A DNA stretch of 30,585 bases from a virus (IMGVR_UViG_2663763534_000001), one strand, 5' to 3'; counted from the first letter of the stretch, positions 3,082-20,554 are shown. Program-made: numbers and translations. Notes: generated by a model not told the origin, from the letters alone.

Positions 3082-3369
3082 TTATTGATTAAGAGATTGG
3101 AAATACCTAACTAACTTACCGGCATCATCACATTTTTCTTTATCTTCGTCCTTAACATAGCCGCGACAAAAGGCTGAATAAAATTTTGCATTTTCAGAAG
3201 CAAAAGCAGCCGTCGAAAGGAGCAGCTCTTTGCATGACTCTTTTGATGCAGCATCGGGATTATTTTTACATGCAAGGTCCGCTGATGAGTTAATAACAGA
3301 AATGCTATCTTCCTGGGCATAAACCGCAGCAGAAAAGGCAAAACATAAAACAAAAATAAAACTCTTCAC
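3082..3369 (-). CDS. Small secreted cysteine-containing protein with signal peptide (95 aa)
   Basis: Likely GTG start after RBS aggaga. N-terminus MKSFIFVLCFAFSAAVYA-QE is a typical Sec signal with an AxA cleavage site. Mature part is rich in Cys, Asp and Lys. Confidence 0.5.
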   Translation of the reverse strand: MKSFIFVLCFAFSAAVYAQEDSISVINSSADLACKNNPDAASKESCKELLLSTAAFASENAKFYSAFCRGYVKDEDKEKCDDAGKLVRYFQSLNQ

Positions 3370-3396
3370 TTTATCTCCTGTAACAGTCATCACAAT

Positions 3397-7300: not shown

Positions 7301-8305
7301 GGCAGATTTCCGGTCATTATCCAGTGCGCAGGTGATTTTTGCCGCCGGGTACATGTTTACCAGTTGTTCCACAACATGAACCATGTTGTTAGCGGATACA
7401 GCGACAACCACAGCGTCAAAGCGTTTATCTTTTTTCGTGGCAAGCCAGATGGATGCACCAGTAGCAAAACCTTCTGTAACAGCGATGTTTTGCGCCCCTT
7501 TCAGCTCACCGATAACAAAGCAGGCACCGACGAAATCACCGCTGGTTACTGCGCTGGTCTGGTATTTCCCACCTTGTTTGTCGATTCGCTGCCAACCCAC
7601 AATACGACCATCATAACGACCGTCTAGGTGAGCCAGAGGGATAGCCATATATGTGGTTGGCCCCCGGCTCCATTTCGCACTGTCGTGACTGGTCACGCGA
7701 CGCACATCACATGAACTAAAAACGTCACGAATACCTTTTTTAATCGCATATGGCCATGAGCCGTCTTCAGCCTGAGCATGTTCCCACGCGCTGTGGAATG
7801 CCAGCCATCCCAGCAAACGTTCATGGTCCATTTGGTTGTTTTTCAGGTCATTAATTCGTTTTTGTTCTTCACGGCGACGACGTGCTTCGGCCTGACGTTC
7901 TATTCTTTCCCGTTCTTCTTCTGGTTGTGCGACCACGGTCGCATTATTCCGTTGTTGCTCACGGCGATATTCAGAAAACAGGAAGGAGAAACCGCTCCAT
8001 GAGCCAGCATCGCTGCCTTTATGGACGAAGTTAATGAACGGGTAATCAATCCCTTTGCTGTGTTCCAGCCTGGAGTAAATTTCTACGCGTCCTTTCAGGC
8101 TCTTTTCGAGAGCTTCTGGAGATGTTTTATTGTATGAAGAGTAACGCTCAACCCCCCCGCGAGGGTTGAGTTGGATGTTGTCGGAACAGGCAGGCCAGTT
8201 GATACCAGCCATCTGTGCCAGCTCGGTTAGTTCATCCCGTGCTGCTTCAATTAGCGAGAACGGATCGCTGCCAAAGCGATCCGCATAGAAATCGTTTAAT
8301 GTCAT
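4310..8305 (-). CDS. repA: Multifunctional replication protein RepA (primase plus helicase), N15 RepA-like
   Basis: 1331-aa ORF with a Walker A motif (VRAGMGSGKST). Size and position (between the telN side and cB) match N15 repA. Confidence 0.88.
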   Translation of the reverse strand: MTLNDFYADRFGSDPFSLIEAARDELTELAQMAGINWPACSDNIQLNPRGGVERYSSYNKTSPEALEKSLKGRVEIYSRLEHSKGIDYPFINFVHKGSDAGSWSGFSFLFSEYRREQQRNNATVVAQPEEERERIERQAEARRRREEQKRINDLKNNQMDHERLLGWLAFHSAWEHAQAEDGSWPYAIKKGIRDVFSSCDVRRVTSHDSAKWSRGPTTYMAIPLAHLDGRYDGRIVGWQRIDKQGGKYQTSAVTSGDFVGACFVIGELKGAQNIAVTEGFATGASIWLATKKDKRFDAVVVAVSANNMVHVVEQLVNMYPAAKITCALDNDRKSATEGKGNTGLRTGYEILSKFNDVRCVYPTFEDDPQMECSDFNDLHKLRGLRETARQLFATANRLKTGTDLLSLTLNRLKTIKRDNRRTFAKELLRAVDIGMLTCPVPNSPSDLFNMFCIVLREMGLENIYRATVKDHIARRLNKKCRIAQAPRSFSERITDPNKRPQHITYKRFETSVMTDDVLKYVQSLQGIVIVRAGMGSGKSTGLLRPLMHSSERGISVAHRVSLIGGLWEMMTEGKGVKADILHYQDPGYQEMAPYASKLTICINSIVKNCWQPLMRQHDYFGFDEATQGLRAVLSGRAMENPVAVFNTLIDALARTEQHPIMVDADANDLLVDLAELAMKRREELGLPAWLQIHVIELPVDVRNRETGEPIRVFYTEKDRIMTEVVKAVSDGEKIMLATDSSTFAEDVTATLRMHFPGKKFLCVNQKNKPEPEVEAFTNQPKKMVKKYDGLIYSPSISSGVSIEQKHFDRHFGMFCGEVVPSDAVQMLRRDRTAKEFIIGFDKARAKRETDPQKIERAFAQALLATAGMNGELTDVVFDGDRISMGVANTDFTRMKIKAAAIEATARNDYASNMICIMHSDGYKVSPLATDYAANDIGKDLRKEARDIVWEQTLDLHLNTETPQESEREELLKKRALTLEEQAKLVRWDIENELKLPVEEGTLKFYFDGARDKVRRYETMLLDEVTARRYDREEAAINFTYAYRQAGQWQYFVVTAMTREQADDVFKTKFPGIIDHKVKATPTVEVGARGFYALKSATLRQYFIDCGINPETMTGEATQERLKFARDNLMTAERRDLLNNVLHIGGFMTPKGKPKVPEALFKNICDSLGLKTGKRRGRDGDKRPTLRFVEPESAAFMLDILVQRQKDGLTLKTRKAEKTAIEMDRDLDLNIYMDDKTRSTNEQVQNAPHSVISEALAVLPVAVPESWAMSALSSEELATMSSWSSASIAMTFASLYLTEFMDHLSSNELRRLREYITGNSSCSYEEQGAFYG
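4591..4641. other. Candidate replication origin element inside the 3 prime end of repA
   Basis: 9-bp inverted repeat tggatcgcg / cgcgatcca flanking an AT-rich spacer containing (AT)5, with several GATC sites. N15 ori is reported to lie in the 3 prime part of repA. Confidence 0.3.
7685..7698. repeat. Palindrome CGTGAC-TG-GTCACG (GTGAC-N2-GTCAC family) inside repA
   Basis: Perfect 6-2-6 inverted repeat sharing its core with the sites at 3001 and 12939. Confidence 0.45.
7928..7943. other. sopC-like centromere palindrome TGCGACC-AC-GGTCGCA (copy 1, inside repA)
   Basis: Perfect 7-2-7 palindrome with the same architecture as the F sopC SopB-binding repeat (TGGGACC-AC-GGTCCCA). Five copies in the window. 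Confidence 0.6.
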
Positions 8306-10160: not shown

Positions 10161-10413
10161 ACAAGTTATGTTCAGGAAACCGTCGAAGCCAGAATTAAGG
10201 TATTCGGGGGTAAGAAATGAATATGTTATTTGGTGTCCAACTTGTGGTTACAGGACACGACCAGATAGTAATAAGCAGTCTGTAATTGCCGATTGGTATT
10301 TATCAAATCAGCCAGGTAATAAGCATATAGAAAATCTTTGGATTAAGCGTTACTTGGAAATCAGAGGGGGTGCGACCGTGGTCGCACAAGAAAATGAAAA
10401 TAACGCCATTTAA
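10093..10413 (+). CDS. Zinc-ribbon protein, possibly Lar-family (restriction alleviation); start uncertain
   Basis: Contains C.C...WCPTCG Cys pairs typical of small phage zinc ribbons. 5 prime end overlaps the Q-like gene. A sopC-like site lies in its 3 prime end. Confidence 0.3.
   Translation: MRRRSAVKSSNAIGQEVPFCLCKQVMFRKPSKPELRYSGVRNEYVIWCPTCGYRTRPDSNKQSVIADWYLSNQPGNKHIENLWIKRYLEIRGGATVVAQENENNAI
10371..10386. other. sopC-like centromere palindrome TGCGACC-GT-GGTCGCA (copy 2)
   Basis: Perfect 7-2-7 palindrome identical to the other copies apart from centre orientation. Confidence 0.6.
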
Positions 10414-13445: not shown

Positions 13446-13733
13446 TCAATAGACGGCATTAATATTAATTGTTGCGCCACATGCTTGGGCATATTTTGAT
13501 AAAGTTTTCATGCTTGCCCCTAAAGGATTGCTTTCCAGGCGGCTGATGGCGGACGGGCGCAATCCCATTCGTTCTGCCAGAGCTGACTTCGTTAAACCTG
13601 CTCTTTCCCTCATTTCGTATAACATTTCGACCATCTCCAGTTCTTTATCGGCCTCTTCATATCCTTTGATAGCTTCTGGAGTGTTGAGTAGTTTTTCCTT
13701 TACTTCGTTAAACGGGATGCCTTTTGCTTTCAT
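13446..13733 (-). CDS. HTH XRE-family antitoxin (HigA-like)
   Basis: 95-aa ORF with HTH (LTKSALAERMGLRPSAISRLE). Start overlaps the toxin stop (ATGA) and it lies downstream of the toxin, i.e. HigBA-type order. Confidence 0.7.
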   Translation of the reverse strand: MKAKGIPFNEVKEKLLNTPEAIKGYEEADKELEMVEMLYEMRERAGLTKSALAERMGLRPSAISRLESNPLGASMKTLSKYAQACGATININAVY

Positions 13734-14044
13734 CAGTTCATCTCCTTCAGGCGAGTTCTGGCGATTTCTATAGCCTTTACTGGTGTTTTCTGTGTCTTTT
13801 TTACAAATGCATGCAATAGATAAATTTCGTTACCAGTCGCGTAGGCGTATAGCGTTCTTGCGATGTTTTTATCCCCTACTCTTAGTTCAAAGAGTCCTCC
13901 GCCTATTACACGGCTATGGGGCATCTTAAGTTTGTTTCCCTCTTTCTCCAGTCGTTCAATTAGCCTGGTCATGCGACCTCGCAGATCGTCTGGTAGTTCA
14001 AGCAGTTCATCCAGTGCTGCAGGGTGGGTTATCACGTTAAACAT
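13733..14044 (-). CDS. RelE/HigB-superfamily toxin of the phage Gp49-like family
   Basis: ATG at 14044 with RBS ggagg. 103-aa protein (MFNVITHPAALDEL...YLLHAFVKKTQKTP) typical of Gp49-like/HigB toxins. Coupled to the downstream HTH antitoxin. Confidence 0.7.
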   Translation of the reverse strand: MFNVITHPAALDELLELPDDLRGRMTRLIERLEKEGNKLKMPHSRVIGGGLFELRVGDKNIARTLYAYATGNEIYLLHAFVKKTQKTPVKAIEIARTRLKEMN

Positions 14045-14673: not shown

Positions 14674-14695
14674 CTGTGCGACCACGGTCGCACAG
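14674..14695. other. sopC-like centromere palindrome (copy 3), extended 22-bp form CTGTGCGACC-AC-GGTCGCACAG
   Basis: Perfect 10-2-10 palindrome; core TGCGACCACGGTCGCA at 14677..14692. Confidence 0.6.
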
Positions 14696-16109: not shown

Positions 16110-16382
16110 ATGAAGATGGATGAACGATACAGCAGTGCATCTTATGGTAGCGCTGGTCTTGCTGCGTTCTTTGCCAGCCTGTCATTGCAGGATTGGGGCT
16201 TCATTATCGGTGTCGCGTTCAGCATTATCCTCGGTGTGCTTACATACCGGCTCAATAAACGCGAGCAGATGAAGCGCACGAAGATATTGCAGGACATATT
16301 GGATAAAACTAATACCAATAATCTTTCTGCTACAGCGATGGTTATTGGAGAGCTGGGGAAGAGAGCACCGAAGGAAATATGA
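16110..16382 (+). CDS. Holin (class II / pinholin-like, dual-start motif)
   Basis: 90-aa protein starting MKM (dual-start motif), with two hydrophobic segments ([27 protein letters not shown]) and a charged C-terminus. Sits directly upstream of the endolysin with an ATGA overlap. Confidence 0.75.
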
Positions 16383-16879
16383 TGCAGTCATCATTACGCA
16401 AAGCTGTCACAGCTGCTATTGGTGGCGGGGCTATTGCCATAGCGTCTATGCTCATCACTGGCCCAAGTGGTAACGATGGTCTGGAAGGTGTCAGTTACAT
16501 ACCATACAAAGATATTGTTGGCGTATGGACTGTATGTTACGGGCACACTGGAAAAGACATCATGCTCGGTAAAACGTATACCGAAGCAGAATGCAAAGCT
16601 CTCCTGAATAAAGACCTTGCCACTGTTGCCAGACAAATTAATCCGTACATCAAAGTCGATATACCGGAAACAACGCGCGGCGCTCTTTACTCGTTCGTTT
16701 ACAACGTGGGCGCTGGTAATTTCAGAACATCGACGCTTCTTCGCAAAATAAACCAGGGCGATATCAAAGGCGCATGTGATCAGCTACGTCGCTGGATATA
16801 TGCTGGCGGTAAGCAATGGAAAGGCCTGATGACTCGTCGTGAGATTGAGCGTGAAGTCTGTTTGTGGGGTCAACAATGA
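16379..16879 (+). CDS. SAR endolysin (T4-type lysozyme, GH24) with N-terminal signal-anchor-release domain
   Basis: Gly/Ala-rich N-terminal SAR segment ([20 protein letters not shown]) and catalytic E-x8-D-x5-T triad ([17 protein letters not shown]). Confidence 0.8.
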
Positions 16880-17343
16880 GCAGGGTAACCGCGATTATCT
16901 CCGCTCTGGTTATCGGCATCATCGTCTGCTTGTCGTGGGCTGTTAATCATTACCGTGATAACGCCATCGCCTACAAAGAGCAGCGCGACAAAAACGCCAG
17001 AGAGCTGAAGCAGGCGACCGCCACCATTACTGACATGCAGCAGCGCCAGCGTGCTGCTGATGCACTCGATGCTAAATACACGAAGGAGTTAGCCAATGCG
17101 AAAGCTGAAAATGATGCTCTTCGGCGTAAGCTTGATAATGGTGGTCGGGTGCTCGTCAAAGGAAAATGCCCTGTGCCAGCCTCAGCCAAAACCTCCAGCG
17201 CCTCCGGCATGGGCAATGATGCCACCGTCGAACTCTCTTCAGTTGCTGGACGAAACGTTCTCGGTATCCGGGACGGAATTATCCGCGACCAAACAGCACT
17301 GAGAACGCTTCAGGAATACATCAATACGCAATGCCTGAATTAA
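16876..17343 (+). CDS. Rz: i-spanin Rz
   Basis: ATGA overlap with the endolysin. N-terminal TM segment, coiled-coil region, and an embedded Rz1 ORF. Confidence 0.75.
17096..17302 (+). CDS. Rz1: o-spanin Rz1 (lipoprotein), embedded in the +1 frame of Rz
   Basis: RBS ggag. Lipobox LIMVVGC-SS followed by a Pro-rich segment ([16 protein letters not shown]). Wholly inside Rz. Confidence 0.7.
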
Positions 17344-17384: not shown

Positions 17385-17696
17385 ATGAAAATTTATATTG
17401 CCGGGCCAATGACGGGATATGAGAACTTTAATCGTGACGCCTTTAATAAAGAGGCAGATCGTTTGTCACGACATGGTCACTCTGTCTTGAATCCAGCCAC
17501 TTTGCCTAATGGTCTGACACAACGTGAATACATGGATATTTGCTTTGCAATGCTTCGTTGTGCGGATGCTATTTTGATGCTTCCTGGCTGGAAAGCGTCT
17601 GCTGGAGCAACTGCTGAGTATCATTACGCATACAAGATGGAGATGCCGGTATTCACTACGCTGAATTACCCGCCAGCTTGTTCCTCTGCAGTATAA
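17385..17696 (+). CDS. Nucleoside 2-deoxyribosyltransferase-like / DUF4406-family protein
   Basis: 103-aa protein beginning MKIYIAGPMTG, a motif I associate with this family. Confidence 0.45.
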   Translation: MKIYIAGPMTGYENFNRDAFNKEADRLSRHGHSVLNPATLPNGLTQREYMDICFAMLRCADAILMLPGWKASAGATAEYHYAYKMEMPVFTTLNYPPACSSAV

Positions 17697-17743
17697 AAAT
17701 CTCTTTGTTTCTCGTGTGCGATCGTGGTCGCTCGCTAAATTCC

Positions 17744-17954
17744 GCGCTGCATCGTCGCCGTATTCCCGCATTAACTATGACCGTAGCCCGACGGGGAACT
17801 CCTCTGCGCGAGTGTGCGGAAATAATCAAAAACGATGCACACCGGGTTTTTACCGCGCTAATGATTCGCGGGTTTGTCCCTCATGCTCGCTAGTCCTGTG
17901 CGAGGGTGGAAGAAACAGGGCATGTATTCAGGAGCGTGCGACCGTGGTCGCACG
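17744..17954 (+). repeat. Direct repeat copy A (~211 bp, ~95 percent identical to copy B) ending in a sopC-like site
   Basis: Aligns base for base with 19528..19738 with about 10 substitutions. Contains a sopC-like palindrome at its 3 prime end. Confidence 0.8.
17937..17952. other. sopC-like centromere palindrome (copy 4)
   Basis: TGCGACC-GT-GGTCGCA within repeat copy A, 25 bp upstream of the cassette gene start. Confidence 0.6.
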
Positions 17955-17976
17955 GTATCTTTGTCAGGAGGTTTTG

Positions 17977-18837
17977 ATGAAAGAGTTGCAAAAAATTAAT
18001 TCAATAATGGAACGATTAATTGCTCTTGAGCTTAAGCTGGCCGATTGCGGAAAACTGTGTGCTGAAAAGCAAAATGAGCTTTACCGGGAATTTGTTACAA
18101 TCGTAAGTGAGCTGATGCCAATTGTTAATAACTGCCTAATGACATCCAGATTTTTTAATGTCGATGCTACTACATCCAGAAAATTTACTGTGAAAATTCA
18201 AGAAAGAGTTTCTGGTAGTGTGACAAGAGAGATGGCTGAACAGTTTGTGGCAATGAGTAATAAAACAAAAAGAAAAAAGGCATTGCTTGTAACAGTAAAT
18301 CAGCTTTCAGGGCGCGTTGACTTTCAGGTCAGACAGGGTGGGCGTGTACTGGTAAACGATGCGTTCGTTGGACGTTGCTTTAGTCCTTACTCGATGAAAT
18401 ATGATGTTGATGCAGATGATCAGGATATCAGCATTTCCTGGAAATCTGAGACAGCAGGGATTGTATTAACAGCAGAGTTGTTGAGTGATGATAAAAATGA
18501 TGGCCAGCATCATTTGGACGAAAAAAATCATATTTCTGAAATTTGTATGAAGCCACGTAGTGGAATGACTTTATTGTCGCGAACTCTTGCTGCTGGCTTT
18601 TCTGCAACGGAGAAACGTGTGCTTCTGGTAGTGCCTGAAGATGCAGATATTCGTCCACTGAATGGCTGTGATGTTATTAGTGCAAAAACATTGCATACCC
18701 GCATCATGCCTGTACCGGATGTGGTCATCATTGATGATATTGAGAAATGCAAGTCTGTTTCCTCAACTGCCACAATCAAACGAATTTTACGTTGTAGCAC
18801 GTCGGCTGTTGTATTCCAGAAGCAGTTACATAACTAA
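17977..18837 (+). CDS. Hypothetical protein (286 aa), first gene of a low-GC two-gene cassette; no family recognised
   Basis: ATG at 17977 with strong RBS caggagg. The longer ORF-track version (from 17716) runs through the repeat element and is unlikely. Coding sequence is AT-rich compared with the flanking lambda-like genes. Confidence 0.55.
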   Translation: MKELQKINSIMERLIALELKLADCGKLCAEKQNELYREFVTIVSELMPIVNNCLMTSRFFNVDATTSRKFTVKIQERVSGSVTREMAEQFVAMSNKTKRKKALLVTVNQLSGRVDFQVRQGGRVLVNDAFVGRCFSPYSMKYDVDADDQDISISWKSETAGIVLTAELLSDDKNDGQHHLDEKNHISEICMKPRSGMTLLSRTLAAGFSATEKRVLLVVPEDADIRPLNGCDVISAKTLHTRIMPVPDVVIIDDIEKCKSVSSTATIKRILRCSTSAVVFQKQLHN

Positions 18838-18961
18838 CCAGTTTTGTTTTGCAGAACATCCTCAACTAAAAGCTTATAGAAAGAGAGCCTGAGATATTTT
18901 TTTTCTGTCTCTCGTAGTTGTTTATTTTTTCGAACAGGCTTACAACTTACAGGATATATAC

Positions 18962-19411
18962 ATGCAAGAAGAAGCAAAGAAAATTCTTGTTGATTTATTG
19001 AACAATGCCAGCGATGGAATTGATTCCGCCATTGCATTCAGTCAGGCTCAGATTCCGGATGTTGTTCATCAGTTGCTGGTATGGAATATAGTTGATAGTC
19101 TGATTAAAACATTAATAGCCATTTCAACAATCCCGCTGGTTATTTGGTTTATGAAGAAACAGTGCAAAAAAGTTGAAATTGGTAAGTTCGATAATGACGG
19201 ACGCTCATGTGATAATGGACAGCCTAAATACAAACCGACTATGATTTGGGAAAGTGACGGTAGGTTAAGTGCTTTTGTCTTACCATTAGTAGCAGTTTTT
19301 ATTCTATGGTTAAGTTTTATTATTTCTATAGTAGCCAATATGACATGGTTAAAAATCTGGCTGGCACCTAAGTTATATCTAATCGAATACGCAGCATCAC
19401 TAATTAAATAG
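18962..19411 (+). CDS. Hypothetical integral membrane protein (149 aa, 2-3 predicted TM helices)
   Basis: Hydrophobic segments (LIKTLIAISTIPLVIWFM, AFVLPLVAVFILWLSFIISIVA). AT-rich. Weak RBS. Confidence 0.5.
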   Translation: MQEEAKKILVDLLNNASDGIDSAIAFSQAQIPDVVHQLLVWNIVDSLIKTLIAISTIPLVIWFMKKQCKKVEIGKFDNDGRSCDNGQPKYKPTMIWESDGRLSAFVLPLVAVFILWLSFIISIVANMTWLKIWLAPKLYLIEYAASLIK

Positions 19412-19527
19412 CCCATTACAAAAGCCATTCGCTACTGAGTGGCTTTGATAATGGCTTATACCCTACACGGGATAACTTAACTAATATCCCTTTTAACGGA
19501 TAAAGGTATTCAAGCCTGACACATTAT

Positions 19528-19738
19528 GCGCTGCATCGTCGCCGTATTTCCGCATTAACTATGACCGTAGCCTGACGGGGAACTCCTCTGCGCGAGTGTG
19601 TGGAAATAATCAAAAACGATGCATACCGGGTTTTTACAGCGCTAATGATTCGCGGGTTTGTCCCCCATGCTCGCCAGCTCTGTGCGGGGGTGGAAGAAAC
19701 AGGGCATGTATTCAGGAGCGTGCGACCGTGGTCGCACG
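19528..19738 (+). repeat. Direct repeat copy B (~211 bp) ending in a sopC-like site
   Basis: Partner of 17744..17954. Lies ~80 bp upstream of cos. Confidence 0.8.
19721..19736. other. sopC-like centromere palindrome (copy 5)
   Basis: TGCGACC-GT-GGTCGCA within repeat copy B. Confidence 0.6.
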
Positions 19739-19819: not shown

Positions 19820-19831
19820 GGGCGGAAGGCG
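19820..19831 (+). other. cosN-like cohesive-end site (variant of the lambda GGGCGGCGACCT)
   Basis: Flanks match the lambda cos region as I recall it (caggctacg | gggcggaaggcg | cgcgggttttcgctatttatgaaaattttccggtttaaggcg). The 12-nt core differs from canonical lambda at about 5 positions. Confidence 0.55.
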
Positions 19832-20008: not shown

Positions 20009-20528
20009 ATGGAAGTCAACAAAAAGCAGCTGGCTGATATTTTCGGTGCGAGTATCCGTACCATTCAGAACTGGCAGGAGCAGGGAATGCCCGTTCTGCG
20101 AGGCGGTGGCAAGGGTAATGAGGTGCTTTATGATTCTGCCGCCGTCATAAAATGGTATGCCGAAAGGGATGCTGAAATTGAGAACGAAAAGCTGCGCCGG
20201 GAGGTTGAAGAACTGCGGCTGGCCAGCGAGGCAGATCTTCACCCCGGAACACTTGAATTTGAGCGCCATCGCCTGACTCGTGCTCAGGCGACGGCGCAGG
20301 AACTGAAAAATGCCAAAGAATCGGCTGAAGTGGTGGAAACCGCATTCTGTACTTTCGTGCTGTCGCGTATAGCAAGGGAAATATCCAGTATTCTCGACGG
20401 TATTCCTCTGTCGGTGCAGCGACGTTTTCCTGAGCTGGATAACCGGCATATTGATTTCCTGAAACGGGATATCATCAAAGCCATGAACAAAGCAGCCGCG
20501 CTGGATGAACTGATACCGGGGTTGCTGA

Positions 20529-20554
<26 letters not shown>
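20009..20554 (+). CDS. Nu1: Terminase small subunit
   Basis: 181-aa protein (MEVNKKQLADIFGASIRTIQNWQEQGMPVLRGGGKGNEVLYDSAAVIKWY...) near-identical to lambda Nu1 as I recall it, with an N-terminal HTH. Confidence 0.9.

Follow-up and report, generated by a model that had tools for sequence, protein, structure and literature searches.

The stretch of viral DNA analysed here (IMGVR_UViG_2663763534_000001, 30,585 nucleotides, referred to as the window) comes from a linear, N15-like phage-plasmid, of which it covers the left part. Between its DUF4406 gene and the cos site it carries a cassette of two genes, A (17977-18837, + strand) and B (18962-19411, + strand). With a probability of about 0.55, this cassette was acquired horizontally and consists of two independent modules placed side by side, and is not a dedicated two-component system. 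A two-gene system is unsupported because B occurs without A, including in the same slot. The region is one more example of accessory genes at a hot spot already known from lambdoid and N15-like phages, and as a candidate for a defence system the cassette is weak.

Gene A encodes a soluble protein of 286 residues, which matches the PHROG 2571 profile (phrog_2571, 4.3e-156) over its full length (residues 1-286; 291 profile positions). Its start is an ATG within a longer GTG open reading frame (ORF), with AGGAGG 6 nt upstream. Gene B, preceded by an AGGA as ribosome-binding site, encodes a protein of 149 residues with two transmembrane helices and matches PHROG 3054 (phrog_3054, 7.6e-55) over residues 1-149. 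Both ORFs are intact with good ribosome-binding sites and are separated by a spacer of 124 nt. The 56 nt immediately upstream of B (18906-18961, + strand) form a leader of the B module, which moves with B where A is absent. The GC (guanine plus cytosine) content amounts to 40.1% in A, 35.8% in B and 38.4% in the cassette as a whole (17958-19522), compared to 48.5% in the window, 49.4% in the lysis genes and 54.3% in the terminase genes; a lower GC content is found in only 1.2% of equal-sized segments, all of them within the telN gene at the left end. Two hydrophobic segments are present in B (residues about 43-65 and 103-127), none in A.

An earlier sequence-only reading of the window had described two co-oriented genes of 286 and 149 codons at 17977-19411, AT-rich relative to their flanks (49-54% GC), encoding a cytoplasmic and a membrane protein and lying in the moron position between lysis genes and cos. 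All these points are confirmed, the first of them also by RefSeq: the same two coding sequences are annotated on the Shigella sonnei plasmid NZ_CP061364.1, which is 99.9% identical to the region of interest. The same reading recognised no family for either protein. This stands for Pfam and NCBIfam (at their cut-offs), PADLOC and PDB sequences, where neither A nor B has a match, and among PADLOC-DB families not even at an expect value (E) up to 1. It does not stand for PHROG, where both are full-length members of families already catalogued, with uncharacterised function. A literature search for the two PHROGs, the RefSeq accessions of the proteins and phi92 gp220 retrieved no paper in which any of them is mentioned.

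Distribution of genes A and B

The B family comprises widespread small phage membrane proteins, normally encoded by a single early-operon gene in temperate as well as virulent phages. Homologues form 481 clusters in a word-indexed search, from Escherichia, Salmonella, Cronobacter, Citrobacter, Klebsiella, Pantoea and others, and tblastn detects the family in 181 phage records, including phi92-like myoviruses, N4-like podoviruses of Salmonella and Vibrio, and phages of Pseudomonas and Ralstonia. The B copies of Salmonella, E. coli and E. albertii prophages (66-74% identical) are located in the early-left operon directly after N, often beside sieB, and the genes that follow them are unrelated (a pentapeptide-repeat protein, an HNH nuclease, a P22_Y8K6 protein, or cIII). 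In P22-like phages the homologue neighbours sieB, ral and gene 17, and in Sf6 it is gene 34, between ral and tL2A. No function is assigned to the early-left homologue in the genome papers on Sf6, epsilon34 and phage L. Four virulent-phage loci were inspected, and each possesses a single B homologue in an early-looking region, beside an RNA polymerase, dUTPase, thymidylate synthase or ATPase gene. Wherever examined outside the clade that combines A and B, the gene stands alone in an early operon.

B without A is also present in the slot studied here, in two of the loci compared with the window (labelled with L-numbers). In L026 the order is Rz, an ORF of 89 residues, an HNH remnant, B, a TonB-like gene and terminase; in L064, DUF4406 is followed by a palindrome (see below) and by B, with a similar leader directly after the palindrome. 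The BLAST match of the window to L026 and about 30 E. coli chromosomes begins at position 18906, i.e. it includes the B leader.

Gene A has a much smaller range. When 1.84 billion cluster representatives were searched exhaustively with HMMER, one full-length cluster (50%) was found, besides some fragments and two weak relatives, and all named homologues are from Escherichia. With 11 distinct intact alleles and a median ratio of nonsynonymous to synonymous substitution rates (dN/dS) of 0.32, A is nevertheless a real coding gene under purifying selection. Among 5,426 complete E. coli genomes, 66 contain part of the cassette and 28 the whole of it, mostly as chromosomal copies in integrated lambdoid prophages.

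The AlphaFold2 model of A is poor, with a predicted local distance difference test score (pLDDT) of 47. It suggests a helical hairpin at the N-terminus (1-56), a middle domain rich in beta strands (about 99-192) and an alpha/beta domain at the C-terminus (about 200-282). Between the middle domain (99-192) and P0144, in its N-terminal half, there is homology (hhalign probability 96.8%); P0144 is encoded in another lambdoid prophage, where its gene separates Q from the holin genes (181-residue form, L091 5001-5546). The middle domain furthermore resembles an ORF of 74-89 residues, located across or behind the stop codon of Rz in Shiga toxin (Stx) phages and in L026, namely at L022 2998-3222 (Stx2a phage EH1846, overlapping the Rz stop codon) and L026 2945-3214 (after Rz, 89 residues, in the E. 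coli prophage where B is found too). From these occurrences, A-like sequences are regarded as rare cargo of late-operon accessory slots. N15 gp59, at the equivalent position after the centromere site IR4, has no similarity to A. A C-terminal motif of A, 'KPRSGMT...RVLLVV...VVIIDD', looks like a degenerate P-loop of the ParA/Wzc type; this assignment was rejected as unsupported, with only insignificant matches (Wzc and P4 NTPase, E 0.6-0.9) and nothing found in searches with the C-terminal fragment alone.

The variable slot, its repeats and its palindromes

The slot follows the lysis genes (holin, lysozyme and Rz, 16110-17343). Its left border is the DUF4406 gene (17385-17696, + strand; Pfam PF14359, 3.7e-34), which encodes a nucleoside 2-deoxyribosyltransferase-like protein and is found at the equivalent place in N15 (gp57) and in every relative examined. 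The right border is cosN with its 12-nt cohesive end GGGCGGAAGGCG (19820-19831, + strand), aligned to the N15 right end and to the HK630 cos; lambda-like phage records terminate at this position. The gene of the terminase small subunit Nu1 (20009-20554, + strand; PF07471) lies beyond it. Slot content differs among close relatives. The Rz-to-cos interval of N15 contains gp56, DUF4406 (gp57), a cytosine methylase (gp58) and gp59. When relatives are compared between the repeats that flank the cassette, as the sequence-only reading had suggested, the cassette proves to be absent from L012, which retains a single repeat copy, and replaced by an unrelated 255-bp filler in L013, while A is truncated at codon about 195 with B deleted in L010 and truncated at codon about 117 in L011 and L027. 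The lysis genes are unchanged in relatives without the cassette. In this variation, and in a base composition unlike that of its flanks, the cassette resembles a moron.

The flanking repeats (copy 1, 17739-17954; copy 2, 19523-19738; both + strand) are direct, 216 nt long and 94% identical. The near-identical 211-bp repeats of the sequence-only reading are real (BLAST aligns 211 nt at about 95%) and do bracket the cassette. Both are copies of a lambdoid pre-cos segment, each capped by a SopB-type palindrome, and do not delimit a mobile cassette. The repeat body matches 424 phage records, mostly of lambdoid and Stx phages, in the Rz-to-cos interval, and copy 2 occupies the native position relative to cos. 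Judged by sequence, a conserved lambdoid pre-cos segment has been duplicated here along with a putative centromere site, and the repeats are neither insertion scars nor the ends of a mobile cassette.

Repeat positions 7-112 (17744-17850 and 19528-19634) are matched in lambda and HK630 by the sequence upstream of bor. This match includes a minus-strand promoter annotated in HK630, whose counterpart in the window would point leftward, in copy 1 antisense to DUF4406 and in copy 2 antisense to B. A hairpin at 17879-17911 and 19663-19695 differs on both sides between the copies (CCCTC...GAGGG in copy 1, CCCCC...GGGGG in copy 2), which hints at a conserved stem. A structured RNA was considered for the repeat and rejected: no Rfam family matches even at E up to 1, folding z-scores are -1.7 and -1.6 for the two strands, and one compensatory change between the copies is too little.

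The palindrome that ends each repeat is of centromere type, 18 bp long (GTGCGACC-NN-GGTCGCAC), and present in six copies in the window, against 0.02 expected. Two exact copies belong to the slot: GTGCGACCGTGGTCGCAC at 17936-17953 ends repeat copy 1, forms the left junction of the A module and scores as a terminator-like hairpin, and the copy at 19720-19737 ends repeat copy 2. A degenerate copy with two mismatches (17716-17733) lies immediately left of repeat copy 1, and at the equivalent site a perfect palindrome is present in L010, L011, L028, L031, L062, L073 and L074. The remaining copies are located at 10370-10387 and 14676-14693 (both exact) and at 7927-7944 (one mismatch). Read on the reverse strand, the palindrome has exactly the sequence of IR1 and IR4, two centromere sites of N15 (Table 4, PMC7205306). 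The palindromes are, by sequence, N15-type SopB centromere sites (inverted repeats, IR) with putative binding; N15 IR3 corresponds to window position 14676 and IR4 to the slot studied here.

Elsewhere among viral contigs, this palindrome is found at a wide range of gene junctions. In L014, DUF4406 is joined to A via a single palindrome, exactly the hairpin of 17936, and repeat copy 1 is missing exactly between two palindromes. In L064 the palindrome is joined directly to B, and in the isolated phage PhiR46_1 the palindrome of repeat copy 2 is absent. Shared repeats and palindromes would serve as joints for the exchange and deletion of modules by homologous recombination, and such recombination would give rise to the presence/absence and truncation variants among relatives. 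The palindromes at module junctions suggest that partition sites of linear phage-plasmids double as recombination joints, perhaps also as transcriptional insulators. Together with the B family, they are the part of this region worth following.

Expression, proposed roles and rival explanations

A scan for consensus promoters detected none upstream of A or B, and the regional count equals the shuffled expectation. The only terminator-like hairpin of the region is the palindrome upstream of A. Since no promoter of its own was detected, late co-transcription is the simplest reading for the cassette: B, along with A, would be made from the Q-antiterminated late transcript.

The most conserved parts of B adjoin its two helices. 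Invariant residues are located just before helix 1 (F26, P32, V34, Q37, L38 and W41) and just after helix 2 (A135-P136-K137, L140, E142 and L147), and across the superfamily the N- and C-terminal helices are conserved, whereas the inter-helix loop differs in length and sequence. The loop of B contains nine Lys/Arg residues, the N-terminal tail two. In the homologue of Pseudomonas phage Bjorn, a signal-peptide-like hydrophobic extension precedes the conserved N-terminal helix. This extension and the excess of basic residues in the loop (positive-inside rule) suggest a topology with periplasmic N- and C-termini and a cytoplasmic loop.

Residues 79-127 of B exist in at least three allelic forms, common to late-slot and early-left-operon copies of different prophages. 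In this segment PhiR46_1 is 98% identical to the early-operon (PL) allele of E. albertii and 63% identical to the window. For the N-terminal 45 residues there are two types, 'late-slot' and 'early-operon'. When close relatives are compared pairwise, dN/dS of B is high (median 0.65). Positive selection as its cause was rejected, because the swapping of segment 79-127 by recombination accounts for the signal.

We propose, with low confidence, that B acts at the inner membrane, most plausibly in superinfection exclusion at the stage of DNA entry. The proposal draws on its membrane location, the predicted periplasmic orientation of its conserved helices and the early context in most phages, furthermore on sieB, ral and gene 17 as neighbours in P22-like phages, on the presence of the family in virulent phages and on the swapped variable segment. 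In the membrane, the conserved N- and C-terminal helices of B would lie on the periplasmic side and its basic loop in the cytoplasm; B would act at the inner membrane of the infected cell during lytic growth and exclude superinfecting phages at DNA entry, with a specificity that would be set by segment 79-127. A is best described, likewise with low confidence, as an optional cytoplasmic accessory protein. It would be a soluble, Escherichia-restricted and lineage-specific add-on to B that phages readily lose. A function for B would be broadly useful, as this early membrane family is common to temperate lambdoid and P22-like phages and to virulent N4-like and phi92-like phages, and the isolated phage PhiR46_1, which carries the cassette, makes it testable.

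Several points weigh against two independent modules and against these roles. Intact A always has B directly downstream (18 of the 18 loci with sequence available, and the 28 complete E. coli genomes), and deletions take out B and the 3' part of A at once; both may reflect a functional dependence of A on B. The promoter scan was a crude consensus search, and expression in the prophage state may occur. The topology of B is drawn from the positive-inside rule and one homologue. Confidence in both structure models is low (pLDDT 62 for B, 47 for A), and fold searches were uninformative; Foldseek with the mediocre B model, a structure-based check suggested in the sequence-only reading, retrieved nothing from viral structures at E below 0.001. 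Neither Imm, SieA and SieB nor any PADLOC model shows homology to B, and the role of B in exclusion is purely inferred.

The constant company of B after intact A is also what speaks for a new two-gene exclusion or abortive-infection (Abi) system, in which A would be a cytoplasmic sensor or regulator and B a recruited membrane effector. The genes are adjacent and co-oriented in an accessory slot, with a soluble protein before a membrane protein; the pair is kept in plasmid and chromosomal prophages, A is under purifying selection, and L026 holds a protein like the A middle domain in the slot of B. Such a system is nonetheless unlikely, given that B stands by itself in hundreds of settings, among them virulent phages and the very same slot, that its alleles reassort independently of A, and that the 124-nt spacer ends in a leader that travels with B. 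A and B are without PADLOC, Pfam or PDB homology, the promoter signal does not exceed chance, and the pair is limited to one narrow Escherichia clade. The sequence-only reading had seen in the two genes a candidate accessory or defence system and named missing conservation as a pair as an outcome that would speak against it. This is the outcome observed, with B alone widely and in L026 and L064, and the rating of the cassette as the best candidate in the window for an undescribed accessory or defence system finds no support, as regards defence, in conservation or homology, the PADLOC search that it had proposed included. Less probable still is the wider combination, in which A recruited B as a new two-component exclusion or Abi system in Escherichia lambdoid and N15-like phages and PHROG 3054 is moreover an unrecognised, widespread exclusion class with its specificity in residues 79-127.

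Two further explanations take their departure from the position and from the variability of the cassette. Its location in the late operon directly downstream of the lysis genes would suit lysis accessories, antiholin-like or concerned with lysis timing and expressed along with the adjacent holin, endolysin and spanin genes. ORFs like the A middle domain overlap the Rz stop codon in Stx phages, P0144 is encoded just upstream of holin genes, and B is small with two transmembrane helices, like many holins and antiholins. We consider this improbable, as B usually belongs to the early-left operon or to early regions of virulent phages, far from lysis genes, as neither Pfam nor PHROG searches revealed a match to a holin or antiholin family, and as cassette-free relatives keep the same lysis genes. 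The repeated truncations and deletions in relatives, the very narrow distribution of A, the undetectable promoter and the high dN/dS of B could alternatively mark the cassette as decaying cargo devoid of current function, a remnant of past recombination. This is very unlikely: both ORFs of the window are intact with good ribosome-binding sites, the 11 intact alleles of A have a dN/dS of about 0.3, the ratio of B is explained by the swapping of its segment 79-127, and B is strongly conserved at its termini between distant phages. Two independent modules placed side by side remain our preferred reading of the cassette.

The host element and comparison with known systems

The annotation of NZ_CP061364.1 lists a telomere resolvase, a CyRepA1 replicase, CI, Cro and Q, the genes for lysis, and a lambda-like set for terminase, head and tail. 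Gene order in the isolated phage PhiR46_1 (PV340565.1), which plates on ECOR13, is the same as in the window, and this phage has annotated telL and telR ends, the cassette and ParA and ParB, both encoded beside telR. Cognate partition genes are absent from the 30.6-kb window, and no ParA or ParB ORF is detectable in the last 3 kb of NZ_CP061364.1 (L093, 39358-42433), an incompletely annotated end. This plasmid was deposited as circular; the underlying replicon may be linear, its assembly incomplete or wrongly closed.

Apart from the cassette, the minus strand of the window contains a C4 antisense RNA (2758-2844, 73.6 bits) and isrK (2870-2943, 62.5 bits), both detected with Rfam. The pair is located upstream of icd-like and BRO/antirepressor genes and represents a P1/N15-type anti-immunity region. 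At about 3082-3393, likewise on the minus strand, a possible superinfection-exclusion gene is present, the counterpart of a PhiR46_1 ORF (3086-3373) annotated as 'Spackle exclusion protein'. A RelE/ParE-family toxin with a helix-turn-helix antitoxin (about 13446-14044, minus strand, annotation from NZ_CP061364.1) forms a plasmid-addiction module adjoining the late region. A scan of the window for transfer RNA genes found none.

RexAB is a two-gene exclusion system with a cytoplasmic sensor and a membrane effector. The cassette resembles it in layout only, a soluble protein followed by a small membrane protein; homology is lacking, A and B are not conserved as a pair, and the promoter scan gave no sign of expression in the lysogen. 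T4 Imm, P22 SieA and HK97 gp15 are small inner-membrane proteins of superinfection exclusion. B is, like them, a small phage-encoded inner-membrane protein, and its early position in most relatives, the neighbours sieB, ral and gene 17 and the swappable variable segment add to the likeness; this is an analogy and not a membership, as Pfam, PHROG and PADLOC searches detected no sequence homology. HK97 gp15 was also considered as a relative of B and rejected, being unrelated and only 62 residues long.

Other members of PHROG 3054, such as Sf6 gp34, phi92 gp220 and a 'TMhelix containing protein' of N4-like Vibrio phages, possess the two-helix membrane architecture and share with B the invariant F26, P32, Q37, W41, A135-P136-K137 and E142. 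Most of them are single genes of early operons, whereas B of the window is located in the late region beside A. With the N15 sites IR1-IR4, to which its six copies correspond, the window has in common dispersed palindromes of the SopB-binding type; those at 17936 and 19720 are identical in sequence to IR1 and IR4 on the reverse strand. N15 possesses one such site in the slot, the window two exact copies and a degenerate one; the extra IR4-type sites are attributed to the duplication of the segment around the cassette. From the lambdoid morons between Rz and cos (lambda bor; the N15 gp58 methylase and gp59), the cassette differs in that no promoter or terminator of its own was detected by the consensus scan and that its proteins are unrelated to Bor and N15 gp59, but it shares with them the slot, the foreign composition and the variation in presence and absence.

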